Shown here piece by piece: positions 1 through 63,662 of a stretch of DNA of 64,000 nucleotides; position 1 is the first letter of the stretch, and each line of letters starts with the position of its first letter. Under the pieces are notes generated by a model. That model ran no database searches. It was not told the origin of the DNA and was given only the letters and a program-made list of their open reading frames with translations. The position numbers were made by a program, and so were the translations under genes. The DNA is from Polyangiaceae bacterium (GTDB lineage Bacteria > Myxococcota_A > Polyangia > Polyangiales > Polyangiaceae): NCBI GenBank assembly GCA_033763455.1, contig JANRKO010000074.1, forward strand, positions 54,715 through 118,714, in the 5' to 3' direction.

Positions 1-128
1 CCGATTGCGCCACGCACGATCTGAAGCACAGTCGAGATTTTCACGAATGCCGTGAGCGTCATGAAGGCGAAGGGTAGGAGCGCGCTAGCAGCGACCAGCA
101 CAACTAGCGCGAGTGGGTTCGCGTCCAT
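1..128 (-). CDS. sctR: Type III export apparatus subunit SctR/FliP family, 5' part (runs off window)
   Basis: My translation from ATG 128: MDANPLALVVLVAASALLPFAFMTLTAFVKISTVLQIVRGAIG. This matches the YscR/FliP N-terminal pattern LLPF..M.T.F.KI..VL...R.A.G. The start overlaps the upstream stop (TGATG). Confidence 0.8.
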   Translation of the reverse strand, partial: MDANPLALVVLVAASALLPFAFMTLTAFVKISTVLQIVRGAI

Positions 129-448
129 CATTGTGGTTTCTCGTCGTTAGCAAGTGTTGGCAAAGCCTCCCCCACCTCAGCTGAAGATGAGGCCACGGTA
201 TGATTGCCCTCACCGAGCTTCACCAAGCCGGCTTCGCTCGCACCGATCACGTAGGTGGTGCTTCCTGCCCGCACCAAGTACACGGCTCTTCGCCCATCGA
301 GCGGCAGCTTGCCAAGGAGCTCCAGGGGCCCGTTGGGTCGCCCGAGGCCAGCGCGTCGAGCGCCGTACAGGATGAGCACCGCGAGCGCACTCACACCCAC
401 AAGGATGATCGAAGTTTGTACCACGTAGCTGACTACAGCGGGGCTCAC
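128..448 (-). CDS. fliO: FliO-family export-gate chaperone
   Basis: One N-terminal TM helix, then LELLGKLPLDGRRAVYLVRAGSTTYVIGASEAGLVKL, a typical FliO signature. Directly upstream of sctR/fliP. GTG 448 chosen as start. Confidence 0.75.
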   Translation of the reverse strand: MSPAVVSYVVQTSIILVGVSALAVLILYGARRAGLGRPNGPLELLGKLPLDGRRAVYLVRAGSTTYVIGASEAGLVKLGEGNHTVASSSAEVGEALPTLANDEKPQ

Positions 449-558
449 GGCTGCGGGGAGCCTACACCGGGGCACCGATGGCATGTCAGGGTCTTGCACC
501 TGCCGCACGCAGAAGCTACAGGCGGTGGGTCCAAGCGGCTTTTTTTCTGCCAGCTCGG

Positions 559-1785
559 ATGGCGCCCCCAGTGTCCGTGCACCCCGAGAATCTTCCCCGC
601 AGGTTCGGCAGATACGTCCTCTTCGACAAGATTGGGGAGGGCGGGATGGCTCGCATCTATTTGGGTCGGCCCGAAAGTGGCAGCGATAAGCTCTTGGTAG
701 TCAAGCAGATGCTGCCGTTGTTCTCGAACAGCGAGCGTTTTTCTAAGCTGCTTATCGACGAGGCGAAGCTCGCGGCTGAGCTCACCAACAGCAACATCGT
801 TCAAGTCTTCGATTTGGGGCGCGAGGGCGACGTCTTGTACATAGCCATGGAGTACGTGGAAGGCTTTGACCTTCGCCAGCTGCTCCAGCAGTGCAGCAAG
901 CGTCAGATCGCACTGCCCATTGAGTTTTCTTTGTTTGTTGTGGGGGAAACCTTGAAGGCGTTGGAGCATGCCCACAAGAAGAAAAACGAGCAGGGTGAGT
1001 CGCTCGGCATTGTGCATCGGGATGTTTCGCCCTCGAATGTTCTCTTGTCGTTTCACGGCGAGGTGAAGCTGTGTGATTTCGGGATTGCGCGTGCCATGGC
1101 GGCGCGTGAAGAGGTGCCCGACGAAGCGATTGAGGGCAAAGCTGGCTATATGAGTCCGGAAGCCGCGCGCGGTGAACCCATCGACGCACGCGCTGACGTA
1201 TTCTCGGTAGGCATTGTGCTGTGGGAGCTTGTGGCTGGGAGGAAGCTCTACCGGGGCGGCGGAGTGGGGCGAATGCCCAGCCTCGAACAAGCGAGCCAAG
1301 CTGAAATTCCTGCGCTTCCCGAGCGAGGCCTGCCGCACGAAACCGAGCTGCATCGCATCATCGGGCGCGCTCTCAGTGTGGATCGGGATATGCGTTACGC
1401 TTCCTGCCGGGACATGCGCCGCGATCTGGAAGCGTACGTGCTCGAAGCGGGCCTTACCGTGAGCCAGCTCAAATTCGGCGAATGGATCACCCAGAATTTC
1501 GGCACGGAGATCATCGAGCTGCGGCGCGAACGCGAGCGCGCCGCACGGGCATGGTTGAGCGAACGGCCACCGGCGCCCGTAGCGGTGAAGCCGTCGGAGC
1601 CGAAAGTTGCGACGGCAGTTCCGAGCGAGCGCCGAATTGAGGCCAAGCCTGGTCAGGCAGTGCGCAGCGAAGCGCCACTTCCTGGGACCCCGGCGGGCAC
1701 AACCGCAGGCGGGGGGAGCCCCGTGGTTGCCGTGTTAGGCGTCCTTCTGCTGGCGCTCATCGCGGCTTTCTGGCTACTTCGCTAG
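559..1785 (+). CDS. Hanks-type Ser/Thr protein kinase with C-terminal membrane anchor
   Basis: Motifs GEGGMA, VVK, HRDVSPSN, DFG and YMSPE; Pro/Ala linker and terminal hydrophobic helix. Confidence 0.95.
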   Translation: MAPPVSVHPENLPRRFGRYVLFDKIGEGGMARIYLGRPESGSDKLLVVKQMLPLFSNSERFSKLLIDEAKLAAELTNSNIVQVFDLGREGDVLYIAMEYVEGFDLRQLLQQCSKRQIALPIEFSLFVVGETLKALEHAHKKKNEQGESLGIVHRDVSPSNVLLSFHGEVKLCDFGIARAMAAREEVPDEAIEGKAGYMSPEAARGEPIDARADVFSVGIVLWELVAGRKLYRGGGVGRMPSLEQASQAEIPALPERGLPHETELHRIIGRALSVDRDMRYASCRDMRRDLEAYVLEAGLTVSQLKFGEWITQNFGTEIIELRRERERAARAWLSERPPAPVAVKPSEPKVATAVPSERRIEAKPGQAVRSEAPLPGTPAGTTAGGGSPVVAVLGVLLLALIAAFWLLR

Positions 1786-9494: not shown

Positions 9495-9535
9495 AACAGC
9501 CAGGAGCAGCAGACCTTAGGATGCTGGCACAGCTC

Positions 9536-10714
9536 TCAATAAATCCCAACTGGCATCGCGCGCTTACTGAGCAGGGCCGCCCCCACTCCTTCAGTAGGAT
9601 CACTGGCCCAGCGGGCCGAAAACGCCTCCCGGAGCACCGTTTCGGCGAGCTTGGCTCTGGGGGAAAAACCCCAAGCAGGTTCCTGGGACGTGTCGTTGGG
9701 ATCAGCGTAAAGCCGCCACACGAAAAAGCCCATGAAGCGAGGCTCCGCCGTCATCGCCGAAAGCAACGCGCGGTAGGCATCGGCCTGAGCGGCTTCGTTC
9801 ACCTCCACGCGACCCAAGTGTTCCGGCCACTCCCAAGGCCGAATCGCGGGGTCGGTGCGCGTGGTGTAACCAAATTCGGTGAAGAGCACCGGCTTCTGCC
9901 ACCTCTCCGAGAGGCTGCGAACACCTTGGGCTACACGGCGCCCGCCTTCCATGAGTGCTTCGGGCGAAGCTCCGTCTTTGTCTCCCAAAGGATAGAAGGC
10001 GTTGATGCCAATCACGTCTAACTCGCCCCAAATGCTTGTATCCTCAGCGTCATCCCAATTCGCCGCGTACGTCAGCATCCCAGAGTAACGTCGCTTCACG
10101 CTGCGGATGACTCGCGAGAAAAGGGGCGCGCGCGTTGTTGTCACCCAGCTGCGAAGCTCCACCCCCATGGAAAACAGATCAGCATGTTTTAGTTCGGCAA
10201 CTTCGGCCCAGCTGAGCACAAAGCGTTCGTACGAGTCTGCCCAAGCGCGCCAACCGGCATCGCCTTCAGGCTCAATTTCTGCTCGCCAGCCGCCTGTTTC
10301 CACCCATAGGTGAGGAACCAACATCACTTTGAGCCCGCGAGTGTGGGCTTGTTCAATAGCTAACGCCACCTGCTTGCGGTTGGCTTCAAAGGGAGCTTCG
10401 AACGTCGAGGAAATTCCCGAAGGGGTTAAATCCCAGACGCGCCCAAACGGGGTAAGGCTCACCCACGTGGCTCCCATTCGCGCGGCTTCATCGAGTGTTT
10501 TCTCGTACGCCGGGCTTCCGTAGCCGCGTCCAGGATGCAAGCTATTTTCGATGGGTCCAATCGTTACCCCGCGTACAGTTTCCTGAGCCAAGGGCTGCGG
10601 CAGTTCCATGTTTCGCTCCGAGGGTGAAGCGAGCGCGGAGCCCACCACCAAACTAACGCCTAGGCCGAGCCAACGGAACGGAGCGGCTTTCATGCGTGCG
10701 CTCTCAACTGGCAC
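9536..10714 (-). CDS. Glycoside hydrolase family 113-like TIM-barrel protein (secreted)
   Basis: GLKVMLVPHLW, SMGVEL, LTYAANWD, DVIGINAFYPL, KPVLFTEFGY; N-terminal signal peptide. Confidence 0.8.
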   Translation of the reverse strand: MPVESARMKAAPFRWLGLGVSLVVGSALASPSERNMELPQPLAQETVRGVTIGPIENSLHPGRGYGSPAYEKTLDEAARMGATWVSLTPFGRVWDLTPSGISSTFEAPFEANRKQVALAIEQAHTRGLKVMLVPHLWVETGGWRAEIEPEGDAGWRAWADSYERFVLSWAEVAELKHADLFSMGVELRSWVTTTRAPLFSRVIRSVKRRYSGMLTYAANWDDAEDTSIWGELDVIGINAFYPLGDKDGASPEALMEGGRRVAQGVRSLSERWQKPVLFTEFGYTTRTDPAIRPWEWPEHLGRVEVNEAAQADAYRALLSAMTAEPRFMGFFVWRLYADPNDTSQEPAWGFSPRAKLAETVLREAFSARWASDPTEGVGAALLSKRAMPVGIY

Positions 10715-48872: not shown

Positions 48873-51749
48873 TCAGCTGAGCGGTCGTCCTTCCGTCTCT
48901 TCGATTTGCGCCAGGGCCGCTGCCAACGCATCTTTGGCGCGCTCCAGCGAACCTCGATCTTGCTCCCACTTGGAGACGGCGTTTCGGTTCCGCTCTTGTT
49001 CGTCTTTCAGCGCTGAACGGGTTTCGCCGAGCTCGGTACCAAGGCTTTCTCGGGTAGCTGCGAGCTCCGTTCGAAGCTGGTCACGTTCATGGCTTAGCTC
49101 CGCAGCTCGACTCTGCGCCGCGGCCAATTCGGCGCCTAACTCCGCTTGGAGCCGCTCGGTATCTTCCTTCGCCTTCCGCTGGGCTTGTTCAATCTCAAGG
49201 GCAGCCTGGGTGCGCGCGGAATCGGCATCGCGCGCGAGGCGAATGCTCGTGTCGTGGAGCAATTCTTGAACCGAAGTAAGCTCCGTGCGCAGTGCCTCAG
49301 AATCAGCGCGTTCCTGGGCGTAGGCTGCCTCAAGCTCAGTGATCTTTTGCGTTAGTTGGCTAATGCGTTCGCTTGCTGCCGCCTGCTCTCGTTCACGTTC
49401 CGAACGAGTCTGTGCGTGTGCATGTTTTTCAGCGTCAAGGCTAGCTTCAGCGGTGCCGACCGCCTGCTCTAGCGCGAGCAGAGCTTGGGCGTTTTCGTCG
49501 TTCAAAGCCGCCAGGTGAGTGGCCAACGCGGCATCCCATTCAGCCTTCTGCTGGGAGAGTGTGGCTTCGGCTTGGGCTTGCGCTTGACGCAGTTGTGTCT
49601 GGTATTCGTCGACGGTGGCAGCAAGAGTTCGAGCGTGTTCAGCTTCTGCCGCGGAGGCTGCCTCGGCCTGGCTCCTCTCACGTTCGGCGAGGGCCTCGTT
49701 GTGTGCCCCAAGCTGTGCCGCGAGCGCCTGTTCGTGCTTGGCCTGAAGTTCGGCGAGGGCTTGGTCGTGAGCCGCCTGAAGTTCGGCGATGGTGCGTTCG
49801 TGTTCGATTTTTTGCTGCGAAAGAGCGGCCTCGCTTTGGGCCTTTAGGTCAGCCTCACGGAGGGCAAGCTCGTCTGCCGCCTGCTTTTTGAGCAGCTGCG
49901 AGGTGGCTGCAAGCTCTGCTTCGGCCGCAAGCTTCGCCTTCTCAAGTGCTTCACTGAGGTTGGCGTCGAAAGCCTGTTGGGCTTCGGCGACGGCGGCTTG
50001 CCGGCGTTCACCGAGCTCAGCGAGCTGAGCGGAGTATTGCGCATCCAGCTGTTCAAGTGAGAGCGCATGCTCTTCATCCTTCTTGCGCAGTTCAGCGTCA
50101 AGGCTGTTTCTGAGCTCCGCAAATTCACTGGCCTTCGCGTCGAATTCCGTTCTCAGCTTCTCAGCTTTGCGCTTGAAATCATCGGCGCGCTTATTCGCCT
50201 GGTCTTTATCGTTCTTGAATGCTTCGGCCGCACGCTCAAGTTCCGTCGCTCGCCGCTCCAGCTCCGTCGCGCGATCCGCGCTGTCGGCCTTTTCGCGCTC
50301 CAGCGAGAGCAAGTTGTCCCTCAGGCCAAGCAGCTCCTTCTCTTTGTGGCTCAGCTCATCCCGAACCTCCAGGATCTCTTTGTCCTTGCGGTTGAGCTGC
50401 TCGCGCAGATCGAGAAATTCCCTTGCGGAACCAGCGCCGGTCCCGGAGGAGAGCTTCGCTTTTGCGTCGTCCAGCTCCCTCCGCAGCTTCTGTACTTCGC
50501 CGTCTTTTGCCAAGCCACGCTGTAGGGTGTCGTCGAGCTGTTGCGCTCGGGCTCTGGCTTTTCCAAGCTCACCTTCAAGCTCGGCGATTCTACTCTCCAG
50601 CCGCGAACGCTCCTGATCGAACGTGATAGGAATGGAGGTGTTTGGGCGGGGAGGAAATGAGGAACCCCTCGGTGGGGAGGACGTGATGGGGCGTGTACTA
50701 GGATTTGCCGTGGGGATGTCGGGGACCCGGCTCGGCGGAGGCAAGGAGTCCACGGCGGGGTCGAATTCCCCGTCGGGAGCCATGTCCTCGAACGCCTCTT
50801 CGGCATCTAGGACCTCCATCTCAGCCTCAGCCGGCGCAGCTTCCGCCTCTAGCGGCGCGCCGGGAGCCTCGGCGTCTGTGGCTTCGGGGCTGACGGGCTC
50901 GGGCAACGCGCTTCCGAGCTCAAGCTCTTCAGCTGCTTGGTGGGCAAGCGTCTCGTCGTAGCTAACCTGTGAGTGTAGAGTCTGACTGCTCGTGGTGCGC
51001 AAGTCGGCGCTCATTTCCAGATCGGGTGTGCTTTCTAGCTCCAAGCTGGAAGTGACTGCCTGTGGTGGCTCCAGGTGTTGGGCTGCTTCCGCTGGGGTTT
51101 CCAAGATGGCGTCGAATGCGTTGTCCGCGAAATCCTCGACGTCCGCATCGACAATGCTCGGGCGCTCTTCAGCTTCAAATCCGGGCTCTTCGCTGTTGGG
51201 GCCAACTTCAATCTCGACCAGCTCTTCATCCAGCAACTCGGCGTCGAGCGCGGCGTCGAGCTCAGATTCGCTGACTTCTAGGGCTGGGGCCTCCTCAACC
51301 AAAGGATCCTCGTCGAGTAGGACCTCCTCGGCTTTGGATAAGCCGGGGGCCGCCTCGGGGGCTGCCTCGGGACCCGCAAGCGGAACGAACGGCCGGATCT
51401 TTTCTACTAGCTCGGTCACCCCGATGGGCTTGTGCAGGTAGTCCTCGGCGCGAGTGCGCAAGCGCCGGTGCTGCTCGAAGGTTTCCTCGGTGGAATCCGA
51501 ACTCATGATAATGAGAGGGACACTCTTGAGGGCTGCGTCACGCTTGAGCTTGTTGCAGACGCTGAACCCATTCATCTTGGGGAGCTCAATGGCCAGCAAG
51601 ACTAAGTCGGGCTTGTTGCTAGCGGCAGCTTGCAATCCCAATGTGGCATCATCCACCACCGTAACTTCACATCCGTAGGCTGCGAGGCCAGATTGAAGCT
51701 CGTGAGCGAACCCTGAATCACTCTCAAAAACCAGAACTTTGGTTGGCAT
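48873..51749 (-). CDS. aglZ: AglZ-like pseudo-receiver + long coiled-coil protein
   Basis: Receiver fold with VLVFESD and LVLLAIELP (phospho-Asp replaced by Ala), acidic/Pro linker, more than 500 aa of heptad coiled coil. Architecture and N-terminus recall Myxococcus AglZ; orthology not verified. Confidence 0.65.
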   Translation of the reverse strand: MPTKVLVFESDSGFAHELQSGLAAYGCEVTVVDDATLGLQAAASNKPDLVLLAIELPKMNGFSVCNKLKRDAALKSVPLIIMSSDSTEETFEQHRRLRTRAEDYLHKPIGVTELVEKIRPFVPLAGPEAAPEAAPGLSKAEEVLLDEDPLVEEAPALEVSESELDAALDAELLDEELVEIEVGPNSEEPGFEAEERPSIVDADVEDFADNAFDAILETPAEAAQHLEPPQAVTSSLELESTPDLEMSADLRTTSSQTLHSQVSYDETLAHQAAEELELGSALPEPVSPEATDAEAPGAPLEAEAAPAEAEMEVLDAEEAFEDMAPDGEFDPAVDSLPPPSRVPDIPTANPSTRPITSSPPRGSSFPPRPNTSIPITFDQERSRLESRIAELEGELGKARARAQQLDDTLQRGLAKDGEVQKLRRELDDAKAKLSSGTGAGSAREFLDLREQLNRKDKEILEVRDELSHKEKELLGLRDNLLSLEREKADSADRATELERRATELERAAEAFKNDKDQANKRADDFKRKAEKLRTEFDAKASEFAELRNSLDAELRKKDEEHALSLEQLDAQYSAQLAELGERRQAAVAEAQQAFDANLSEALEKAKLAAEAELAATSQLLKKQAADELALREADLKAQSEAALSQQKIEHERTIAELQAAHDQALAELQAKHEQALAAQLGAHNEALAERERSQAEAASAAEAEHARTLAATVDEYQTQLRQAQAQAEATLSQQKAEWDAALATHLAALNDENAQALLALEQAVGTAEASLDAEKHAHAQTRSEREREQAAASERISQLTQKITELEAAYAQERADSEALRTELTSVQELLHDTSIRLARDADSARTQAALEIEQAQRKAKEDTERLQAELGAELAAAQSRAAELSHERDQLRTELAATRESLGTELGETRSALKDEQERNRNAVSKWEQDRGSLERAKDALAAALAQIEETEGRPLS

Positions 51750-51878
51750 AGGACTCTTCTGCCGCCGAAAGCGAAAGCTCTGGCCGGGCACTTCCTTCAA
51801 GATATCGGCCGTAGCCGGGGGGGTCAAACTCGGCTTTCCGTCGGCTCAAAGGTCGCTCGATCGCTAAGCCTTGGGTGC

Positions 51879-54172: not shown

Positions 54173-55591
54173 CTATTCCTCAGGCGTTAGCGGCGGCACG
54201 GAGGCGCGGGCGAGGCCAGGAGTGGTGAGGCGGTCGGCAAGGTGTGTCACCAGGTCGATCTTGGTAACCAGCCCGGCAAGCTTGCCGTTGTCGAGTACGA
54301 GCGCGAGCTTCGCTTGCCCAAGCACGGTTTGAAGGAGCTCCACCTTCGTGTCGGGAGAAACAGTGGCGTAGTCGCTTTCGATGAGCGGCCCAATTGCAGT
54401 GTCTAAGGTGCCTGTTTGCGAGACGAGATGCCGCAACAAGTCCACCTCGTGCACGATTCCGAGCAAGGTATCCCTGTCTAGCACGGGAAGTTGGCTAATC
54501 CCCAAAGAGCGGAGCTTCGCGATGGCCTCGCGCACACTCGTTTCGGGGCTCGCGGTGATCAGGTGGTTCGACTTTTGGAGCAAGATATCGCGCACGGTGC
54601 CAAGGCTCGGCGCCTCCTCAAGAAAGCCATTTTCTCGCATCCAATTGTCGTTGAAAATCTTCGAGAGATACTTTTGTGCGGAATCGGGCAAGAGCACCAA
54701 GATGTTCATCTCGCGGTCCATCTTCTTGGCGTATTTGATGGCGCCAGCAACGGCCGCACCGGCGGAGCCCCCCACAAAGACGCCTTCCCGCCGCACCAGG
54801 TCTCGCGTCATCAAGAAGCACTCTTTATCGTCCACCCGTACGATATCATCCAAGATCGAGATGTTCATGGTTGAGGGCAGAAAGTCCTCGCCAATGCCTT
54901 CTACCTTGTACGAAAACGGCTGCGTGAGGCGCCCTGTTTTCACGAAATCGTAGTAGAGCGAGCCCACCGGATCTACGCCGATTAACTGGATGTTCGGGTT
55001 CTTCTCTTTCAGATATTTCCCGACGCCGCTCACTGTACCGCCCGTGCCCATGCCGGTTACAAACGCGTCGAGCTCGGCACCACATTGCTCCCAGATTTCG
55101 GGGCCCGTGGAGAGGTAGTGGGCTTCGGGGTTGGCGGGGTTGTGGTATTGATTGGCGTAGAAGCAATTGGGTGTTTCTTCAGATAGGCGCTTGGCCACGC
55201 TGTAGAAGCTCCGCGGGTCGTCGGCCTCCACAGCCGTGGGGCACACCACCACGCGCGCACCAAAGGCTCGAAGCGAATCGATTTTCTCCTGACTCATCTT
55301 ATCTGGCATCACAAACACGCAGCGATAACCTAAAACGGCTGCGTGCATGGCCAAAGCCGCCCCCGTGTTGCCGCTCGTGGCCTCAACGATGGTGCCGCCA
55401 GGCTTCAGGCCATTTTCAACCGCACGCTTCAGCAGGTTCTTAGCCACGCGATCTTTGTGGCTCCCGCCGGGGTTTAGAAATTCGCACTTCCCATACACCT
55501 TGGCCTTTATCCCCTCGGCTACCCGATGCAGCTGAATAATCGGCGTGCCACCGATGGCGTCAGTAATGTGCGAGAGAGCGCCCTTCATCAT
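54173..55591 (-). CDS. Cystathionine beta-synthase (PLP domain + CBS pair)
   Basis: NPGGSHKDR, EATSGNTG, GMGTGGT, EGIGEDF, C-terminal CBS domains. Confidence 0.93.
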   Translation of the reverse strand: MMKGALSHITDAIGGTPIIQLHRVAEGIKAKVYGKCEFLNPGGSHKDRVAKNLLKRAVENGLKPGGTIVEATSGNTGAALAMHAAVLGYRCVFVMPDKMSQEKIDSLRAFGARVVVCPTAVEADDPRSFYSVAKRLSEETPNCFYANQYHNPANPEAHYLSTGPEIWEQCGAELDAFVTGMGTGGTVSGVGKYLKEKNPNIQLIGVDPVGSLYYDFVKTGRLTQPFSYKVEGIGEDFLPSTMNISILDDIVRVDDKECFLMTRDLVRREGVFVGGSAGAAVAGAIKYAKKMDREMNILVLLPDSAQKYLSKIFNDNWMRENGFLEEAPSLGTVRDILLQKSNHLITASPETSVREAIAKLRSLGISQLPVLDRDTLLGIVHEVDLLRHLVSQTGTLDTAIGPLIESDYATVSPDTKVELLQTVLGQAKLALVLDNGKLAGLVTKIDLVTHLADRLTTPGLARASVPPLTPEE

Positions 55592-55893
55592 GGGCTAAGT
55601 ATGACGCCGTTTAGCCGTGGTACACACATGGTGCAGATCCGGCTCTGGGCCCGCACAGGGGAAAGGGGGAACAGTTGGGTTGTACGGCGCAGAAGTCCCT
55701 TCGGAACCAATATGCAAGCTCGTCGGAATACACAGTACGGCGCGCTTTTTGGTGGGGGGTACCCAAAAGTGGGCGAAGGTACACCTCCGTTGAGGAGCCA
55801 GCCTATCGCTATCTTAAGATCAGCGTGGAGGCAGCTGTGACCGGTGACGCCCAGTGGCGGCTCACAGCATTTCATGGGACCACTCTTGCAGGG

Positions 55894-57288
55894 CTAACCT
55901 GCTGAGAAAATTCCGTGCCTTGCAAGGGCGGCTTTCGCTCGCCGAGTCCAATTGGTGCCATGCAGTATTTTCATCGCAGCGAGGTCAGTGCGCTTCAAAT
56001 CGAGCCGGGCACTCACGTTGCGGGACCTTAGAATTGGCAACACGTGCTGCTCAAATGCTGCACGCTGGTAAACATAAGCTGCATTCCCAGTCTCAGAGAA
56101 CTCGACAACTACGATCTTCTCAAAGAACATGCAAAACGCGCTTGCTCCCTCGCCGGTTCCACGAATGGCCCGGCTAAGGACTGCCCGCCCCGTTTCGGTT
56201 CCGTTCAGGGTGCGTTGAAGGCTGCTGTAGGCGCTGCTGGCTAACACGCACTGCGTGCCACGAATGCTAGGCAGATACCGCAACCAGAACCGTTCGCGAT
56301 CCTCCTCCTTCATCGCGTGACGGAAGAATAGCGACAGATCTTCCCTCACCAAGATAGCAATAAACTCATCAAAAGCTGCTGGATTCTGGATGCGCACCTC
56401 GCTCCACGCATTCGACATGGGTGGCACACGGGGGTCCCCAAAGGCCGATTTCAGCAGAAGGTCAACAAGGCGGGATGACGCCGGGCTTGAGTGCGAATTG
56501 CAGTTAGCAAGCATCGCTGCGACTACTGTGACCTGACTGCGCAGTGGAGCGATGCCGCCACCGCCAGGCGGCCAGTTCTCTACCCACGTGGATCCGTTGA
56601 GTGCTGGGAGAGTGGGCTTAATCGCGCTCGAAAATGGGGCCAGCTCGGCCGCAATGTTCTCCCATGAGCGACAGGCGAGGGCGTTCGCCAGCCACTCTGC
56701 CGTTGCGGCATGCGTGAACTCCCAGTTCCGGCGGCAGCCCAGAGTTTGATAGAGGTAGTTGGTGAATTCAGCAAGCGTGCGTGGCGGCGAGAGCGCGACG
56801 TCCCGATGCCCGTCTTTGGCGGTTATGAGCCACGCATTTAGCCCACGATGGATTACTCGTACACCAGGCGGTGCTGCGCGCACTAGCTCGGCCCATTCTT
56901 CGCGAGTGGGGTCCTCTGAAAGCTGGCTCCAGTGTGAAAAGAAGGAATCAACAAGCCAGCCGTGGGCTTCTGGGCGCACTCGAAGCAGCGCTCCCATGGT
57001 TGCCGGAGAAATTGTCTGGAGCAGGTTGGTCGCGACGCGCAATTCGCGCCGCGAAAGAGAGGCAAAATCTCCAGCTAGAACGAGCGTTTCAACGCGCTGC
57101 ATCAGATCCTGAGTCGCGCGCTCCTGGTGTTTCGCGCTTACAAGGTCCTGTTTCTCAAGCGACGCCGTCAGGTGCGAATCTAGATTTTTACGACTACGCT
57201 GGAGGCTTTCCCAAACCGCAGCATGCGCAGATAACGCGCCTTGGACGCGCGTTTTCATCTGTGAAAGCAAACGGAGGGGATCCATCAC
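55894..57288 (-). CDS. zorC: ZorC-like EH-signature domain protein
   Basis: FGDPR......W, DLSLFF, DRERFWLRY, VVVEFSETGNAAYVY, ILHGTNW; last gene of the coupled operon. Confidence 0.85.
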   Translation of the reverse strand: MMDPLRLLSQMKTRVQGALSAHAAVWESLQRSRKNLDSHLTASLEKQDLVSAKHQERATQDLMQRVETLVLAGDFASLSRRELRVATNLLQTISPATMGALLRVRPEAHGWLVDSFFSHWSQLSEDPTREEWAELVRAAPPGVRVIHRGLNAWLITAKDGHRDVALSPPRTLAEFTNYLYQTLGCRRNWEFTHAATAEWLANALACRSWENIAAELAPFSSAIKPTLPALNGSTWVENWPPGGGGIAPLRSQVTVVAAMLANCNSHSSPASSRLVDLLLKSAFGDPRVPPMSNAWSEVRIQNPAAFDEFIAILVREDLSLFFRHAMKEEDRERFWLRYLPSIRGTQCVLASSAYSSLQRTLNGTETGRAVLSRAIRGTGEGASAFCMFFEKIVVVEFSETGNAAYVYQRAAFEQHVLPILRSRNVSARLDLKRTDLAAMKILHGTNWTRRAKAALARHGIFSAG

Positions 57289-58142
57289 GGCGCATTCTCT
57301 CGGTACTCGAGACCTGCGCGCACTCGGACTTTGAATACGACACGGCGATCGGCAGTGCGTGTTTCATGGTTCGTTCCCTTGGCCTCAACCGGCCCTCTCC
57401 CAGATACGGTAAACTTGTCGTTCAAGCACGCAGCAAGCGCACGGTCGCTGGCGACGGCCTGCCGCAGCCCGAAGAATAGATTCTGCGCACGGGCTCCGCT
57501 CAAGCGGACATTGTTCTCGAATCCGACGCTCTCACACTTGCTGAGCAGCTCGTTCTCGCAACCCGGGATCGGTCCCATATTGTTCGCCAATTTTGCGTCT
57601 TTGCAGCCATCAAGGAGATTGTTGCTGCAGCCTGGGGGCTTCTGTGCCCCGCATCGCGCGTTATCCGCAAGAAACGGTCTATCGTCAGTATGCCCCTCAA
57701 GACTGATTGAAAGCAAATACTGCCTCGCGCCTGCCGCCCTGCAGAGCGTTTCAACTAACTCGCGGAGACTGTCCTCCGTCGACGGGGACAGTTGTTCGTC
57801 CAGCTCACACTGCCCTGACTTGAATAGCGGGAACCGGTCTTCGTTTAGGGTCAATGTCAGAGAGTAAGGGTCGCTATTGCGATCGCTCTTATCGGCCGGA
57901 GGCTTCACAATGGAGTCTTTCTTGAAAACCTTCGAGAGACGATCAAGAAATTCTACTGCGCCTTGGTCTTGCCTCTTGATCCTGTCAAGTTCCTCCTTGT
58001 TTTGGGCCTCAACTTTCCGCTCCTTTGTTCTCGCTGCAATGGCCTGCACCATGAATATTGCCGCGATTAAGAGAAATGTGACCGCCACGCCCGACATTAG
58101 ATCCGTTGTGGCATGCGAAAACGCGTCCTCTCGCTTGCTCAC
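57285..58142 (-). CDS. zorB: ZorB-like MotB/OmpA peptidoglycan-binding protein
   Basis: TDLMSG TM helix with conserved Asp; FKSG, LEGHTD, N.RLSGARA, DRRVVFK. Confidence 0.88.
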   Translation of the reverse strand: MSKREDAFSHATTDLMSGVAVTFLLIAAIFMVQAIAARTKERKVEAQNKEELDRIKRQDQGAVEFLDRLSKVFKKDSIVKPPADKSDRNSDPYSLTLTLNEDRFPLFKSGQCELDEQLSPSTEDSLRELVETLCRAAGARQYLLSISLEGHTDDRPFLADNARCGAQKPPGCSNNLLDGCKDAKLANNMGPIPGCENELLSKCESVGFENNVRLSGARAQNLFFGLRQAVASDRALAACLNDKFTVSGRGPVEAKGTNHETRTADRRVVFKVRVRAGLEYRENAP

Positions 58143-59878
58143 GTCTGTCTACCGTCCTTCAACGCTTTCGTGAGCTGGCCCACCGCATCCTCGAGCTCCT
58201 CGGCACCAACGCGCCACTGGGATGTCGTGCTGTCCGCCAGTTGCCTAACCTTTTCGTGGAGGTCGCTCCAGGACGCAGCCAGTTGATTTGATTTGTCCTC
58301 AAAACTCCTGATGTAGGTCTCCAGTAACGTTGGCCAGACGCTCTGAAGTTCCGAGATGAGTTGCCGGTGATCTGCCGTTAGCTTCACTTCAACGAGCGAT
58401 TGATCCTTAGCTTCCTTGACGACAGCGCTAGTTTGCTCAAGTATTTGTTGAACAGATGCAGATTGAAGCGCAAGTTGGTCTGTCACGCGTCTCAGGCCCC
58501 CCACGGCTCCCTCTGTCGCCCCGATCATGTGGCTCGCCTCACCCGCTGCAGATTTGAGCGCACCCGCCGATCTGGTCAGGGCATCCTCAGCGCCAGAAAA
58601 AAGTCCGACGACAGCGCCAAGCCTTTTCTCCAGCGATTCCAGCGTTTCTCCGTGGAGAGTGGCCACCTTAGCAGTGGCTGCGATCGTATCGCCTCGCATT
58701 CTGCTGAATTCTTCCGATGTTGCAGTCTGGTGCGCGCGAAGGTGTTGCAACAATTCGTCTACCCGCTCAAAGACACGCTGAGCAGAAGCCTCGCCGCGAC
58801 CCTGTTGTTGCTCAACGGTCGTCACGAGCCGTTGCCCCACGGCGTCAAGATTGCGCGCCATCTCAGGTACCACTCGTGCAAACTGTTGGAGTGCAGTGTT
58901 CAACTGGGCAGTTTCCCCGGAATAGCCTTGGGACAGGGCGCTATTCAGCTGGTTGAGGAGTGTCTCAACCGGTGCCTGAGCTTGCCGTGAGATCTCGATG
59001 CGAATAGCGTCCAAATTGGCGACGATACGTTCCTGCGTCGCGGTAGCGATGCCGTCTATGCGTTCGAGCGCCTTACCCATCATGGCGCCGATCTGGTCGC
59101 CAACATCACGTGTGAGAATGTGTCTCAACTGTTCGGTGACATCGGTGGAGAGATTCTGAACGCTGACCTCAATGCTATTGAGCCGTTGCACGTCGCCCTG
59201 CAATGCTTGCAGTGAGCCGACCGTCGCGACCGACTGTTCGTGAATGTTTTGGAGAACCTCCAGGTGAAAGCGCTGAAGCAGGCCGTCGTAATCCTCTGGA
59301 GAGGCGAAGACATGCCGCATTTCGCGTTCAGCGTAGTCCAGAAGCTTCACGTGCTGGATCTCCTTGCGCATTGAGAACAGCGTGTAAATGACCGCGCACA
59401 AGACTCCGGTCGCCGAGATTATGAACTTCGCTCCCATGCCACTGACCGCATTCGACAGCTCTTCGTTGGCCCTGAGCACATCAGTGTTGCTGTGTCCGAT
59501 TGCTTCGCGAACGCTCGTCATCAGAACCCAGGCGATAAGCGCAAACGTGCACAGGAGCGAGAACCCCGTAAATATGGACGCCCACGGTAGTGGCTTGGCT
59601 CCCTCGGAAAGCTCTTGAAGAACCTGGAGTCTCGGCAACCGAAGGAGAAACCTATCATCCCCAGGATAGCCCACGCGCTCGCGGCCCGGTGCAAGATATT
59701 TTTCAAGCTCCCGAATGCTCGCATCTTCTTCCGTTTGCGGATCCCATTCCACGGAAATTCGTGAAATGCGGGTAAGCAGATTGCGGGTCCGTTTTGTTCG
59801 AAGCTCTTCGTGCAGCAAAAGCCCAATCAGCAGTATCAGGAGAGTCGCCACGGGCACCGCCGTAAGCGAGTCATGCAT
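58139..59878 (-). CDS. zorA: ZorA-like membrane protein with long coiled-coil tail
   Basis: Three hydrophobic helices (SIFTGFSLLCTF; GMGAKFIISATG) and about 400 aa of helical tail; immediately upstream of zorB. Alternative start TTG 59908. Confidence 0.82.
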   Translation of the reverse strand: MHDSLTAVPVATLLILLIGLLLHEELRTKRTRNLLTRISRISVEWDPQTEEDASIRELEKYLAPGRERVGYPGDDRFLLRLPRLQVLQELSEGAKPLPWASIFTGFSLLCTFALIAWVLMTSVREAIGHSNTDVLRANEELSNAVSGMGAKFIISATGVLCAVIYTLFSMRKEIQHVKLLDYAEREMRHVFASPEDYDGLLQRFHLEVLQNIHEQSVATVGSLQALQGDVQRLNSIEVSVQNLSTDVTEQLRHILTRDVGDQIGAMMGKALERIDGIATATQERIVANLDAIRIEISRQAQAPVETLLNQLNSALSQGYSGETAQLNTALQQFARVVPEMARNLDAVGQRLVTTVEQQQGRGEASAQRVFERVDELLQHLRAHQTATSEEFSRMRGDTIAATAKVATLHGETLESLEKRLGAVVGLFSGAEDALTRSAGALKSAAGEASHMIGATEGAVGGLRRVTDQLALQSASVQQILEQTSAVVKEAKDQSLVEVKLTADHRQLISELQSVWPTLLETYIRSFEDKSNQLAASWSDLHEKVRQLADSTTSQWRVGAEELEDAVGQLTKALKDGRQT

Positions 59879-59904
59879 TACAAGGTCAATCAAAACGACC
59901 CTCC

Positions 59905-62670
59905 TCAAGTGGCAAACACAACGTTCTGGAGTTCAACTTCATTGTCGGTTGGGGCAAGAAAGTCCCGCGCTATGCCCCGTTTTTTCCTCACCAATTCGTC
60001 CAGCTTCACGTCGAATCCTGAAGTGGGATCCCTTTCGTGGTGCAGAACCAGGTAATGCTCCTGCACTTCTTGGCTTTGTCCAATTCGGTGGGCACGTGCT
60101 GTCGCCTGATCCTCCTTGGCCGGGTTCCACCACCTGCCGTAGTGAATAACGTGACTTGCAGCGGTAACATTGAGACCAGCACCCGCTGCAAGTGGGCTCA
60201 TGATGAGCACGTCAAAACCACGTCCTCTGGAGAACTCGTCGATTAGTCTTTGTGAGCGATTTTGGGCGTTGGAATCCCCATTGATAACGTGCACACGCGG
60301 CAAGCCGAAACGGTTGCAAATGAGATCTCGCAACATGTCTTGCATCCGAACCCAAAGAGTAAAAACAATGGCTTTTTGTCCCTGCTTTTCGATTTCCTCC
60401 AACAACTCAAGGCACTTGGCCAGCTTGGGGCTTGAGGCCACTGCCTCATCCGGTGATAGCTCCCTGGTGTCATCACCGCGAAGAAGCGCAGGATGCTGAT
60501 ACAGCTTCTGGAGCTCCCCTAAGATCGGTAGGCCGCCCTTGTGGGTACGAACAATCTGCCGTTCGAGTTCTTCCTGTTCAAATGTCATGGCGATCGGGTG
60601 GACGGTGGTGCGCAGGGGCATCAACTCTCGAAGCGTGTCCCTTTTTTCACGATGCAATACGGGTGAGCCTATTGATGGGTACCTGAGCGCCTCCCGCAGT
60701 AGCAGAGGCCCCGCGGAGTTTTTCTCAAAGTCGCGCGAGAATGAAGGTGAGTCTCCAAATGGTGTTCCAGGGCTCAGGAAATCGAACTGCGTCCAGAGAT
60801 CTCGCAGGCGATTTTCCACCGGCGTTCCGGTTGAGCAAATACCAAACGAACGTTTGAGCCCTCTGGCGGCTGCGGCACGATATGTCCCGGGGTTCTTAAT
60901 GTTCTGGGATTCGTCCAGAATCACCGTTGCCCAGTCGGCTCGGAGTAACATTTTCTGGTGACGGGCCAATGTGTCGTAGGACATGACAACGACAGCCGGT
61001 CTGCGAAGGGAGAGCAATAGCGGTCCGAGCTCGCTGCGCATCGAAGTGGCGGTCACGGCGATCACTTCCGGCGCTGCACCAGTTCGGAAATACCTGGCTA
61101 TTTCCTTCTTCCAGTTCTCCATCAGTATGAGGGGGCATACGACGAGCGATGGCAGCTCGCGGTCGTGCGCTGGCCCGAATCGAAATTGGAGCGCCAGGAA
61201 ACAAGCAATCTGCAGCGTTTTGCCAAGTCCCATCTCATCGGCAAGTAGAACCCCACCACGTCCGGCCAAGTAGTGTCGCCACAGCCACTCGACGCCCTCT
61301 CGCTGGTGAGGTTTGAGGTGACATTCAGGCGTAATGATTGATTCAAGCTCCGCCCAAGGAACGACGAACTGTGAGTTGTCGATATCCTGAGGTAGCGCGG
61401 AGATTCCATCGGGGTCGGCGATGACTGCCGCATCCCGCTTGGGTTGCGGTAACCTGTGGTGCTCACCTGCATCGGTCGGTTTGACTTTCTGCGATTCTAG
61501 GCGAGCTAGCTGAGCTACCCCATCTTCGAGGTGTCGCAACAGTGCTTCCGTTGGCATCACAGACTGGCCGCCGAGTTCGACAACACGACCAAGTCGGCTG
61601 GCTTCGCGAGCCTCGGATAACTTGATCGGCGCTTCATCTTGCCGAAGGCCAATGTCTACAAGGGCGCCGTCGGTTGTGGATATTCTTAACCGGAGGATAG
61701 GGAGCGAGTCATCGCTATCCTTCCGGTACCACTCTATACCCGAAGTTAAGTCAACTTCGCGCTCGGGTCTGAGGATGGGTTCAAACCCGCGAACGCGCGG
61801 GCTGTACTCAGCAAAGTCGACGTCGTCGTAACTAGGTCCTTCCGGCAGCAGTCGGATCGGATCAGCTTCTACGTCTCTGGCGAATTGGTTCTGAAGCGGC
61901 TTCGCCGCGCGAGCAGCAGCTTCCATTCCTTCGGACAGCAACAGGTACTCCCGGGATGACTGCGCAACTACCGGCGCATCGGGGGAAAGGCGTGCCAGAT
62001 CAATCTGAGCGCGGCTCCCGTCGTCGTGAATCTCATCCAGCGTCAGGGAAAGTAGCTGAGACGCGAACTTGGCGGGCCTCCACTGGAGGGAAGCTTTCCT
62101 TACTGTGCGGATGCTGAATCCGGCCAGATGAGGATGGTAGTTGACGCTGATGGATCCAAAAGATCCTTCCATGTGCTCCGCTGCGCCATCCAGCTGCGAG
62201 CGTATCCTTGCTAGGCGATCAATTTGGGCGTCACGCGTGGTGGCGTTTGGAATTGCTGTGATTGCCTTCTGCGCTGCAAACACCACTGGAAGCAGTACGC
62301 GATTCCCAAAGATGGGCGACTCGTTTTCTCCAACGCGTTCACCATCGACGACGAGTTCAAAGCGGCAATCAGTGCCTCCGACATGTCCTCGCACGTCAAC
62401 AAGGACATTCTGTTTTTGCACGCCTAAAAGGCTAGCAAGATGGTCCTGTCGAGCGCTCCAGATGTCGACCTGCTCAGGATCCGTCTCCTGAGTTGGAACT
62501 TCCCCCACCGTGGCCCAATGCTGGACAGAAAACCGAACTCTGCGTTCGCTGTCAGCGATCAGTCCGCATGATTCGTCACGCTCCAGGGCGCGGAGCGCTC
62601 TGCTTTGTCGAGGATTCGGCGCAGCGCCGAGGTCGAGCAAGAGGTAACCTGATTCTATCGAAGTCTTCAT
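59905..62670 (-). CDS. zorD: SNF2-family helicase/ATPase (ZorD-like, no C-terminal nuclease)
   Basis: LKPHQREG, LADEMGLGKT, DESQNIKN, TGTPVEN, AGAGLNVTAA, QATARAHRIGQ; ends about 50 aa after motif VI. Confidence 0.8.
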   Translation of the reverse strand: MKTSIESGYLLLDLGAAPNPRQSRALRALERDESCGLIADSERRVRFSVQHWATVGEVPTQETDPEQVDIWSARQDHLASLLGVQKQNVLVDVRGHVGGTDCRFELVVDGERVGENESPIFGNRVLLPVVFAAQKAITAIPNATTRDAQIDRLARIRSQLDGAAEHMEGSFGSISVNYHPHLAGFSIRTVRKASLQWRPAKFASQLLSLTLDEIHDDGSRAQIDLARLSPDAPVVAQSSREYLLLSEGMEAAARAAKPLQNQFARDVEADPIRLLPEGPSYDDVDFAEYSPRVRGFEPILRPEREVDLTSGIEWYRKDSDDSLPILRLRISTTDGALVDIGLRQDEAPIKLSEAREASRLGRVVELGGQSVMPTEALLRHLEDGVAQLARLESQKVKPTDAGEHHRLPQPKRDAAVIADPDGISALPQDIDNSQFVVPWAELESIITPECHLKPHQREGVEWLWRHYLAGRGGVLLADEMGLGKTLQIACFLALQFRFGPAHDRELPSLVVCPLILMENWKKEIARYFRTGAAPEVIAVTATSMRSELGPLLLSLRRPAVVVMSYDTLARHQKMLLRADWATVILDESQNIKNPGTYRAAAARGLKRSFGICSTGTPVENRLRDLWTQFDFLSPGTPFGDSPSFSRDFEKNSAGPLLLREALRYPSIGSPVLHREKRDTLRELMPLRTTVHPIAMTFEQEELERQIVRTHKGGLPILGELQKLYQHPALLRGDDTRELSPDEAVASSPKLAKCLELLEEIEKQGQKAIVFTLWVRMQDMLRDLICNRFGLPRVHVINGDSNAQNRSQRLIDEFSRGRGFDVLIMSPLAAGAGLNVTAASHVIHYGRWWNPAKEDQATARAHRIGQSQEVQEHYLVLHHERDPTSGFDVKLDELVRKKRGIARDFLAPTDNEVELQNVVFAT

Positions 62671-63009: not shown

Positions 63010-63039
63010 GCCATGTGTCAATAGTTGTTGACACATGGC
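63010..63039. promoter_or_regulatory. 12-bp perfect inverted repeat containing TTGACA on both strands (hicAB operator/promoter candidate)
   Basis: GCCATGTGTCAA-TAGTTG-TTGACACATGGC, 24 bp upstream of the hicA GTG. Confidence 0.75.
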
Positions 63040-63063
63040 GGGTCGCGAGCTACAGAAATACTT

Positions 63064-63264
63064 GTGACGGCGCGGGAGTTGCTTCGTGTGCTGAAGCGCC
63101 TTGGGTGCGTGGAAGCTCGGAGGCGGGGGTCTCACATAGTCATCAAATGCGAGAAATGCACCACCGTAGTGGCGATGCATTCCGGTGCGGATATCCCTCT
63201 GGGGACCTTGCGCGCAATTGAAAGGCAGCTTGAACCCTGCCTAGGGAAAGGCTGGCTGAAATGA
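63064..63264 (+). CDS. hicA: HicA mRNA interferase toxin
   Basis: RELLRVL..LG....RRRGSH....VAMHSG.DIP.GTLRAI.RQ. Confidence 0.93.
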   Translation: MTARELLRVLKRLGCVEARRRGSHIVIKCEKCTTVVAMHSGADIPLGTLRAIERQLEPCLGKGWLK

Positions 63265-63662
63265 AAAAGTACAACATACGTCTTCTGCACGACAGCGAGT
63301 CTGGGCTCTGGACGGCGAGTTGGGACAAGGTCGGAGGCGGTGGTGTCGTCGCTATCGGGATGACCATTGAGTCGGCGATGAGGAAGTTCCGTTCTGCGCT
63401 GGGCATCTTTTTGGACGATAAGCAGGCAGCCAAGGGGGCCGTGTTGATACCGGAGGTTGCGGGTCTCCCCAAGCCTCTCCTTGCGAAGCTTGAGACCGCT
63501 CAGCTCGCCAAGGCAAGAGCAGACGCCGAGCAATTGCGGGCGGGAAAAGTCATCCGGCGCGTAGTGGGTGATTTGGCCAAGCGAGGGCTGAGTACACGAG
63601 ACGTTGGAACATTGCTTGGGGTTTCACGCCAGCGAGCCCACAAGCTATTGAAGGCTGGCTGA
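63261..63662 (+). CDS. hicB: HicB antitoxin with C-terminal HTH
   Basis: N-terminal partial RNase H-like fold (WTA......V.A.G.TIE.A); GLSTRDVGTLLGVSRQRAHKL HTH; ATGA overlap with hicA. Confidence 0.88.
   Translation: MKKYNIRLLHDSESGLWTASWDKVGGGGVVAIGMTIESAMRKFRSALGIFLDDKQAAKGAVLIPEVAGLPKPLLAKLETAQLAKARADAEQLRAGKVIRRVVGDLAKRGLSTRDVGTLLGVSRQRAHKLLKAG

Follow-up and report, generated by a model that had tools for sequence, protein, structure and literature searches.

A probable diverged type I Zorya system with the gene order zorD-zorA-zorB-zorC in a Polyangiaceae bacterium

Introduction

What serves as the effector of a Zorya-like cassette in which no nuclease is visible? The question is raised by four genes at 55894-62670 on the minus strand of a 64,000-nucleotide stretch of DNA from a Polyangiaceae bacterium (GenBank assembly GCA_033763455.1, contig JANRKO010000074.1, positions 54,715 to 118,714), called the window here. 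A sequence-only reading had described these genes as a helicase-first operon of a divergent Zorya subtype. It took type I ZorD to end in a C-terminal Mrr-like nuclease, and concluded that the output of this cassette must come from ZorC, from an unassigned helicase N-terminus of about 440 residues, or from a factor encoded elsewhere. According to Hu et al., Zorya genes are 'typically' arranged in type-specific orders, zorA-zorB-zorC-zorD (A-B-C-D) being canonical for type I, and non-canonical arrangements were excluded from the analyses (PMC11946911). For the Mrr-like domain of ZorD, the relevant passage of Mariano et al. cites earlier work (PMC11890865).

From our analysis it is quite probable that the cassette encodes a type I Zorya anti-phage system which is diverged but intact, that it is a member of a lineage with the order zorD-zorA-zorB-zorC (D-A-B-C), and that it works, by homology, through an E. 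coli-like mechanism. All four proteins are homologous to Zorya proteins, share folds and conserved functional residues with them, and are encoded in a conserved order with a patchy distribution. It is not a new kind of system; what it adds is a conserved lineage-specific layout in which the helicase gene comes first, ZorD has no Mrr domain and ZorC has no C-terminal domain.

Results

The helicase gene, zorD (59905-62670, minus strand), encodes a Snf2-family ATPase of 921 aa, laid out as an N-terminal domain (aa 1-445, nt 61336-62670) followed by a Snf2 core (aa ~446-909). Pfam recognises SNF2-rel_dom at residues 455-702 (6.5e-41) and Helicase_C at 752-864 (8.5e-16), and the best PADLOC match is ZorD1 PDLC00629 (7.1e-121; residues 286-911 against positions 334-962 of 1012). 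Its best sequence match in the Protein Data Bank (PDB) is ZorD of E. coli NCTC9026 (EcZorD, 8qy7; phmmer, 1.3e-69), with residues 446-909 aligned to 574-1066 of 1080. Both proteins end about a dozen residues past the same aligned point, the window ZorD 12 aa after it. This end lies 56 aa after motif VI as read from the translation, close to the earlier estimate of about 50. In NCBIfam, too, the ZorD model stops with the helicase (matched over model positions 570-1033 of 1035), and several PADLOC ZorD1 profiles stop just past it (PDLC00633 matched to 895 of 908, PDLC00632 to 1088 of 1101). Pfam found no C-terminal Mrr domain (PF04471) in ZorD, and none of the four Zor proteins matched a nuclease family in Pfam, PADLOC or NCBIfam.

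EcZorD is described by Hu et al. as an N-domain (1-502) joined to a Snf2 C-domain (503-1080). The full-length protein leaves DNA uncut; plasmid and phage DNA are degraded in an ATP-dependent manner by the C-domain on its own, an activity that is lost with D730A/E731A or with mutation of Glu651 (PMC11946911). The window ZorD has a Walker A motif (GLGKT, 481-485) and a DESQ box, whose D586/E587 correspond to EcZorD D730/E731, while E523 corresponds to EcZorD E651 (hand-counted in the alignment). D586 and E587 are invariant among 92 ZorD homologues, in which E523 is at least 90% conserved. Because EcZorD ends at the same point and carries its reported nuclease activity in the Snf2 half, the "missing nuclease" is not a deviation: judged from the aligned sequences, the absence of a discrete nuclease domain is no anomaly relative to the E. 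coli system. The assumption that type I ZorD ends in an Mrr nuclease is right for many ZorDs, including most of the canonical ones that we scanned, and fails for EcZorD. With it goes the support for the deduction that the output must be sought in ZorC, in the N-terminus or elsewhere, since EcZorD degrades DNA without an Mrr domain through a Snf2 half whose critical residues are conserved here.

The short C-terminus is also not peculiar to the window. In all six aligned ZorDs of its clade, 10-20 aa separate a common DFLAP motif from the C-terminus, and PF04471 occurs in none of the 120 ZorD homologues listed (precomputed Pfam lists). The common DFLAP-anchored end, together with the lack of PF04471 in these 120 proteins, rules out a truncated copy, which the earlier reading had named as a possible refutation should close homologues carry the nuclease.

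The N-terminal 445 aa of ZorD returned the query alone in a word-based sequence search. An AlphaFold2 (AF2) model of full-length ZorD, built with 92 homologues, has a mean predicted local distance difference test score (pLDDT) of 87.9 and a predicted template modelling score of 0.85. Foldseek ranks 8qy7 first for this model (3e-42), and VIA-align superposes the two over 682 residues (3..906 against 24..1063) with a Z score of 28.7 and a root-mean-square deviation of 6.4. Among the matches listed by VIA-align, 8qy7 is the sole entry that spans both halves of the protein, other Snf2 entries covering at most 459 residues. With residues 1-445 modelled by themselves from 16 sequences (pLDDT 77.8), EcZorD 8qy7 was the sole Foldseek match at E<=0.001 (1.6e-7); the next rows are ASKHA-type ATPases with E>=0.06 and a probability of at most 0.21. 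In a wide VIA-align search of 48,161 chains, 8qyc (EcZorD) was the sole entry with Z>=8 (Z 8.9, 282 aligned residues, 1..393 against 23..414), the next reaching 5.3. The N-terminus that had been called unassigned is thereby given the EcZorD N-domain fold by AF2, Foldseek and VIA-align. No nuclease fold was listed in these searches with the whole protein or the N-domain, the low-confidence segments 291-324 and 396-437 not being covered. A nuclease hidden in the ZorD N-terminus is ruled out on these grounds, outside the same two segments, the EcZorD N-domain fold being the sole significant match. Together with the family searches, this agrees with the first impression that no PD-(D/E)xK or HNH nuclease is present in the four genes.

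Within the fast-evolving N-domain, the most conserved stretch is the motif YSxRVxGFE at ZorD aa 289-297 (61780-61806, minus strand). Across the 92 homologues F296 never varies, and Y289, R292, V293 and G295 each reach at least 90% conservation. Model confidence is reduced around the motif, which is closely followed by the disordered residues 302-311 and may be a candidate interaction site.

The second gene, zorA (58139-59908, minus strand), encodes a 589-aa protein with three transmembrane (TM) segments, at 9-36, 107-134 and 155-181 by hydropathy, followed by a helical tail some 400 aa long. No Pfam family exceeded its cut-off for this protein and no PADLOC ZorA model matched at <=1e-5. A word-based search found only five relatives, at 33-52% identity; a genome scan that used ZorA as its sole query gave no match, and a narrow profile of the six members yielded only coiled-coil noise against the PDB, with the EcZorA tail at E 0.042, so that a wider profile was needed to establish the link. 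The six-sequence profile, searched against 1.84 billion cluster representatives, gave 128 proteins at E<=1e-3, 89 of them at <=1e-10. From these, 76 full-length sequences were aligned, the other 52, mostly shorter fragmentary rows, being left out. Forty-nine of the 76 match PADLOC ZorA1 PDLC00598 at <=1e-5, the best match to a ZorA model being 2e-201; Pfam MotA_ExbB is reached by only four. The protein P0121 is a ZorA relative (phmmer, 5.3e-22 to EcZorA 8qyd), and the close ZorA family aligns with it in hhalign from TM2 to the end of the tail (95.2%, E 2.6e-8). The 76-row profile matches EcZorA 8qyd at 9.6e-32 with the head included (13-208 against 26-220). The EcZorA ion-path residues T147 and S184 fall on T121 and S165 of the window protein, within conserved TF and ISA motifs (hand-counted); both columns are matched to EcZorA, at its GTF and its GSA respectively, and across the 76 rows S165 never varies and T121 is kept in at least 90%. 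By these profile alignments the second gene of the cassette is a diverged ZorA.

The third gene, zorB (57285-58142, minus strand), encodes a MotB-like protein of 285 aa with one TM helix (11-39 by hydropathy) and a PADLOC ZorB1 match of 2.3e-15. A profile of the clade ZorBs matches the type I ZorB of Shewanella (8vvn_B) at 2.5e-6, and D14, at the position of the essential Asp, is invariant in all six clade ZorBs. Pfam gave no OmpA match in ZorB, and NCBIfam a weak one to the TssL OmpA-type family (1e-5, 25.5 bits against a cut-off of 139.8). The motifs LEGHTDD, NNVRLSxxRA and GRG are invariant in the six proteins and represent a putative peptidoglycan-binding site. ZorB contains eight cysteines, four of which lie in a Cys-rich insert of about 40 aa in the putative OmpA-like periplasmic domain (about aa 165-205; 57530-57650, minus strand); the insert is absent from four Corallococcus/Archangium rows and has a shorter form in the closest relative, L006.

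The fourth gene, zorC (55894-57288, minus strand), encodes an EH-signature protein of 464 aa, matched by Pfam EH_Signature PF15611 (2e-26; residues 29-452 against 33-421 of 423, above the 27.5-bit cut-off) and by PADLOC ZorC1 (1e-16). The clade ZorC profile matches EcZorC (8r68) at 1.4e-11, and all six sequences share E396 and H443, the counterparts in that alignment of E400 and H443 in EcZorC. The clade ZorC reading frames measure 462-479 aa when the shortest plausible starts are taken. PADLOC ZorC1 PDLC00614, with 465 positions, matches the window ZorC up to its end. Pfam, PADLOC and hydropathy thus bear out the four identities first proposed, namely a SNF2 ATPase, a 3-TM tailed protein, a MotB-like protein and an EH-signature protein, with matches well outside the range of chance.

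To survey the gene order, one genome from each of 185,579 species was scanned with ZorC as the anchor, and the loci were annotated by hidden Markov models (HMMs) built from the clade alignments. This gave 17 loci, 15 of them complete, and every complete locus has the order D-A-B-C on one strand with genes overlapping or abutting. Four of the 15 (L002-L005) are the same records that the ZorA profile had found; the sole metagenome locus, L006, is also D-A-B-C. The carriers comprise Corallococcus (6 records), Myxococcus, Pyxidicoccus, Hyalangium, Archangium, Polyangiaceae, other metagenome-assembled genomes (MAGs) of Myxococcota and one Paraperlucidibaca MAG. Because D-A-B-C recurs in all 15 complete loci and in L006, with all open reading frames (ORFs) intact and overlapping or abutting, the cassette appears to be selected as a unit. 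Three other EH-signature loci of the phylum to which the window belongs, L031-L033, have the order A-B-C-D, zorC being placed in L031 and L032 from a Pfam match, as the clade HMMs missed it, and zorB in L031 being assumed from the gap. The D-A-B-C order is real and lineage-specific, and the lineage is mostly of Myxococcota. The survey that the earlier reading had proposed thus confirms the helicase-first order. Searching the full-text literature found no description of the D-A-B-C layout, supplementary loci lists lying outside that search.

The two incomplete loci, L021 and L022, contain only a ZorC fragment. In L021 (Corallococcus sp. RDP092CA), a zorC piece of 357 aa lies at 8500-9573, and both flanks are shared with L003 (C. 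aberystwythensis), a complete D-A-B-C locus; the pattern fits the loss of zorD, zorA, zorB and the 5' part of zorC, which would make L021 a deletion remnant. L022, from an Archangiaceae MAG, retains a ZorC piece of 146 aa. The Paraperlucidibaca MAG, which is gammaproteobacterial, carries a complete D-A-B-C cassette (L017, 1535-8644) on a 9.2-kb contig, and its ZorD groups with the window ZorD. Either the cassette was transferred horizontally out of Myxococcota or the contig was binned wrongly.

A ZorD-anchored scan, in which mostly unrelated Snf2 proteins were found, did not extend the D-A-B-C count. Among the 80 loci listed, 75 have no Zor neighbour by the clade HMMs, the other five are arranged as ABCD (2), ACD (1), AD (1) and a fragmented A..B..D (1), and none is D-A-B-C. 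A quick IQ-TREE phylogeny was computed from 33 ZorD/Snf2 rows, namely 16 D-A-B-C, six A-B-C-D, L034 and 10 of the 75 solitary proteins chosen by hand; L009, the duplicates L016, L018, L019 and L023, the weak L035 match and the split L078 gene were left out. All 16 D-A-B-C ZorDs fall on one side of a branch of length 0.98 with a Shimodaira-Hasegawa approximate likelihood ratio test (SH-aLRT) support of 100, the tree being rooted at its midpoint only. They stand beside the group that holds the canonical ZorDs (SH-aLRT 97), as its sister under the midpoint root. Two canonical-order ZorDs from the phylum of the window, L031 (6483-9368, without Mrr_cat) and L032 (6085-9411, with Mrr_cat), are sister rows. 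Because the Mrr-less L031 sits beside the Mrr-bearing L032, the domain has been gained or lost more than once.

The frequency of the components in the phylum is low. EH_Signature occurs in 7 of the 401 genomes of the phylum sample, and a ZorA-like protein in one of 41 related genomes, which is the genome of the window itself. When flanks within 6 kb were compared (blastp 1e-8, ORFs of at least 120 aa), no flanking ORF family was common to more than two loci, although small or fast-evolving genes could escape such a comparison. A conserved extra effector gene beside the cassette was sought in the same comparison, and none was found.

In the window, zorD, zorA, zorB and zorC are four intact minus-strand ORFs that fill 55894-62670 and are tightly packed. 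The zorA/zorB junction is a GTGA overlap, as is the zorB/zorC junction, where the overlap would be 1 nt if zorC begins at the next ATG; the coordinates and these junctions confirm the packing and the overlaps first noticed. The longest zorA frame overlaps the zorD stop as TTGA. A second TTG, at 59893, lies 6 nt past an AGGAGG and 11 nt after the zorD stop and gives a protein of 584 aa; by its sequence context it is the better-placed zorA start. Downstream of the cassette, Pfam identifies housekeeping genes: a PALP and CBS-domain enzyme, a thiolase and hisIE. The thiolase shows 62-70% identity to proteins from MAGs of Sandaracinaceae, Polyangiaceae and Haliangiales, in keeping with a host that is probably of Myxococcota, although equally high scores come from two MAGs labelled Acidobacteriota. 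G+C content over the cassette is 0.54-0.58, slightly lower than the 0.60-0.63 at 49-51.5 kb, further downstream in the window.

Several neighbouring features were recorded. Upstream of zorD, at a distance of about 350 bp, a HicA toxin gene (Pfam HicA_toxin, 6.2e-14) and a gene for a HicB-like partner of 133 aa, with weak DUF1902 and HTH_23 matches, occupy 63025-63662 (plus strand, opposite to the cassette) with a 4-nt overlap, next to what appears to be the end of the contig; PADLOC matched neither protein. An ORF of 95 aa (55588-55875, minus strand) lies within the 300 bp that separate zorC from the gene for the PALP and CBS-domain enzyme; Pfam, PADLOC and NCBIfam gave no family for it, and it is probably not a gene. 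The gene at 48873-51827 (minus strand) codes for a protein of 984 aa that begins with a response-regulator receiver domain (4.5e-17), its long remainder having no Pfam family.

Discussion

The evidence assembled here points most likely to a mechanism of the E. coli type, with the Snf2 half of ZorD as the effector. By homology with the E. coli system, we propose a hypothetical sequence of events in which (i) ZorA and ZorB would form a proton-driven 5:2 motor in the inner membrane, anchored to the peptidoglycan by the OmpA-like domain of ZorB; (ii) perturbation of the envelope by a phage would lead to rotation of ZorA and its long cytoplasmic tail; (iii) the signal from the tail would recruit or activate ZorC, which would bind DNA through its EH domain, and ZorD; (iv) the N-domain of ZorD would auto-inhibit the Snf2 half, which on release would degrade incoming DNA in an ATP-dependent manner. 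No separate nuclease domain or gene would be required in this scheme. From the E. coli proteins we infer how the motor is assembled (5:2), what triggers it, how ZorC and ZorD are recruited and that the output is a nuclease.

Several observations weigh against so direct a transfer. The window ZorC, which ends at residue 464, does not have the C-terminal globular domain of EcZorC, the alignment stopping near position 480 of 560; according to Hu et al., this domain is needed in E. coli for DNA binding and defence (PMC11946911). Its absence counts against a reading in which the cassette works exactly like that of E. coli. However, since a catalogued ZorC1 profile such as PDLC00614 has only 465 positions, short ZorCs exist among known systems, and the domain is not universal in type I. 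Mrr_cat is present at the C-terminus of five of the six canonical-order ZorDs scanned (L032, L033, L038, L039 and L047), and the Mrr-less state of the window ZorD may be functionally relevant. The nuclease activity of the Snf2 domain itself rests on a single study of the E. coli protein. Against the NCBIfam equivalog cut-offs, ZorD (269 bits against 1500) and ZorC (36.3 bits against 490) score far below. The head of ZorA is not recognised by Pfam or PADLOC, and PADLOC ZorA models match only the tail, at best at 1.9e-4; with this value and the partial coverage, the protein would probably fail the system rules of PADLOC or DefenseFinder. The ZorA tail also has in-frame gaps of 18 and 33 aa relative to its five closest homologues and is the shortest of its group (589 aa for the whole protein against 623-644 aa). 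With both the C-terminal domain of ZorC and the Mrr domain missing, there is scope for an effector arm of modified design.

How far such a modification might go can be framed in two ways. One is that the D-A-B-C lineage is a distinct Zorya subtype, defined by an Mrr-less ZorD encoded first, a ZorC without its C-terminal DNA-binding domain and a ZorA head beyond current models, with an effector arm unlike both the E. coli type and the Mrr type, for example with ZorD as a translocase which, activated by the motor, would strip or block phage DNA and not cut it. We regard this as rather unlikely. If it were true, current annotation, and possibly defence finders, would overlook the subtype across Myxococcota. 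Of the divergent subtype first suggested, what stands is a D-A-B-C system that has the complete set of type I components; the alternative output attached to it finds no support in our results.

The other, which we hold to be unlikely, is that the system derives from Zorya but has another output: ZorD would be only a DNA translocase or remodeller, the role of ZorC would have changed, and defence would consist not in degradation by ZorD but in the blocking or eviction of phage DNA, the recruitment of a host nuclease or depolarisation of the membrane. Such an output would be consistent with the absence of any nuclease domain from the four proteins and of a nuclease fold from the searches with the ZorD N-domain, but EcZorD also has no Mrr domain and nevertheless degrades DNA via its Snf2 half, and the ATPase and ribose-contact residues needed for degradation are conserved in the window protein. 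The loss of a ZorC domain that in E. coli is needed for DNA binding would likewise suit a changed role, yet PDLC00614, a short ZorC1 profile of about 465 positions, is already in PADLOC and matches the window ZorC to its end. The presence of Mrr_cat in five of six canonical ZorDs sampled and its absence from all aligned clade ZorDs, as well as the long separate branch of the D-A-B-C clade, would be expected if the output had diverged; a conserved extra gene that might supply it was not found near the cassette in the flank comparison.

A function outside defence is very unlikely. Here the Zorya-like motor and helicase would have been co-opted for a myxobacterial cell process, such as the regulation of a surface structure or DNA handling, and sub-threshold NCBIfam matches of ZorD to a pilus expression-regulating Snf2 family helicase (151.7 against 1100 bits) and to the SCO1167/SCO6262 helicase family (243.4 against 1200 bits) could be taken to point that way. 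However, the best match of every component is a Zorya protein, the ZorA-like protein and the EH signature are as rare among related genomes and in the phylum as stated above, and the flanks differ between loci, one of which is a deletion remnant, in the pattern of an accessory mobile cassette. The patchy distribution, the variable flanks, the remnant and the HicA gene next door are behaviour typical of an accessory defence cassette. That the window copy is inactive or decaying is most improbable, because the two tail gaps in its ZorA (P0002), the Cys-rich ZorB insert that four Corallococcus/Archangium rows do not have and L006 has in a shorter form, and the existence of remnant loci elsewhere (L021, L022) are set against four open frames, intact functional residues wherever checked, a conserved C-terminal end of the ZorA tail and overlapping junctions.

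The favoured reading, an intact and diverged type I system, has consequences for annotation. Because the ZorD homologues go by no other NCBI names than 'DEAD/DEAH box helicase' and 'helicase SNF2', and because the ZorA head is unseen by PADLOC and Pfam, counts of Zorya systems in myxobacteria may be too low. The lineage also offers a natural test of whether an Mrr-less Snf2 half is a sufficient effector outside E. coli, and of whether ZorC needs its C-terminal domain.

Comparison with known Zorya systems

The closest reference is the type I system of E. coli NCTC9026 (EcZorI; ZorAB 8qyd, ZorC 8r68, ZorD 8qy7/8qyc; Hu et al., Nature 2024, PMC11946911), which has the same four components as the window operon. 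In both, ZorD consists of an N-domain and a Snf2 half, has no Mrr domain and has the same C-terminal end, and both keep the ZorB Asp, the Thr/Ser filter of ZorA, the Glu/His pair of ZorC, and the DExQ box and Glu651 equivalent of ZorD. The differences lie in the order (D-A-B-C in the window, A-B-C-D in EcZorI) and in the individual proteins. The ZorD N-domain of the window is shorter (~445 aa against 502) and only about 10-11% identical, with no sequence-level match; ZorC has 464 aa, without the C-terminal globular domain, against 560 aa; the ZorA tail has about 400 aa against 507 aa, and the head of the window protein goes unrecognised by Pfam and PADLOC. The Cys-rich ZorB insert is a feature of the window and not of EcZorI.

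The canonical type I systems with an Mrr-bearing ZorD that are listed above share with the window ZorA, ZorB, ZorC and the Snf2 core of ZorD. Their loci have the order A-B-C-D, and Mrr_cat was found on five of the six ZorDs scanned, whereas the D-A-B-C clade has neither. Types II (ZorABE) and III (ZorFABG) share with the window the ZorAB-type motor with a tailed ZorA. Unlike them, the window system contains ZorC and ZorD, and PADLOC gave no match to ZorE, ZorF or ZorG in the 13 ORFs in or beside the locus (for ZorD, among the best 25 of 37 families). Because ZorC and ZorD, which define type I, are both present, the window system belongs to type I rather than to type II or III.

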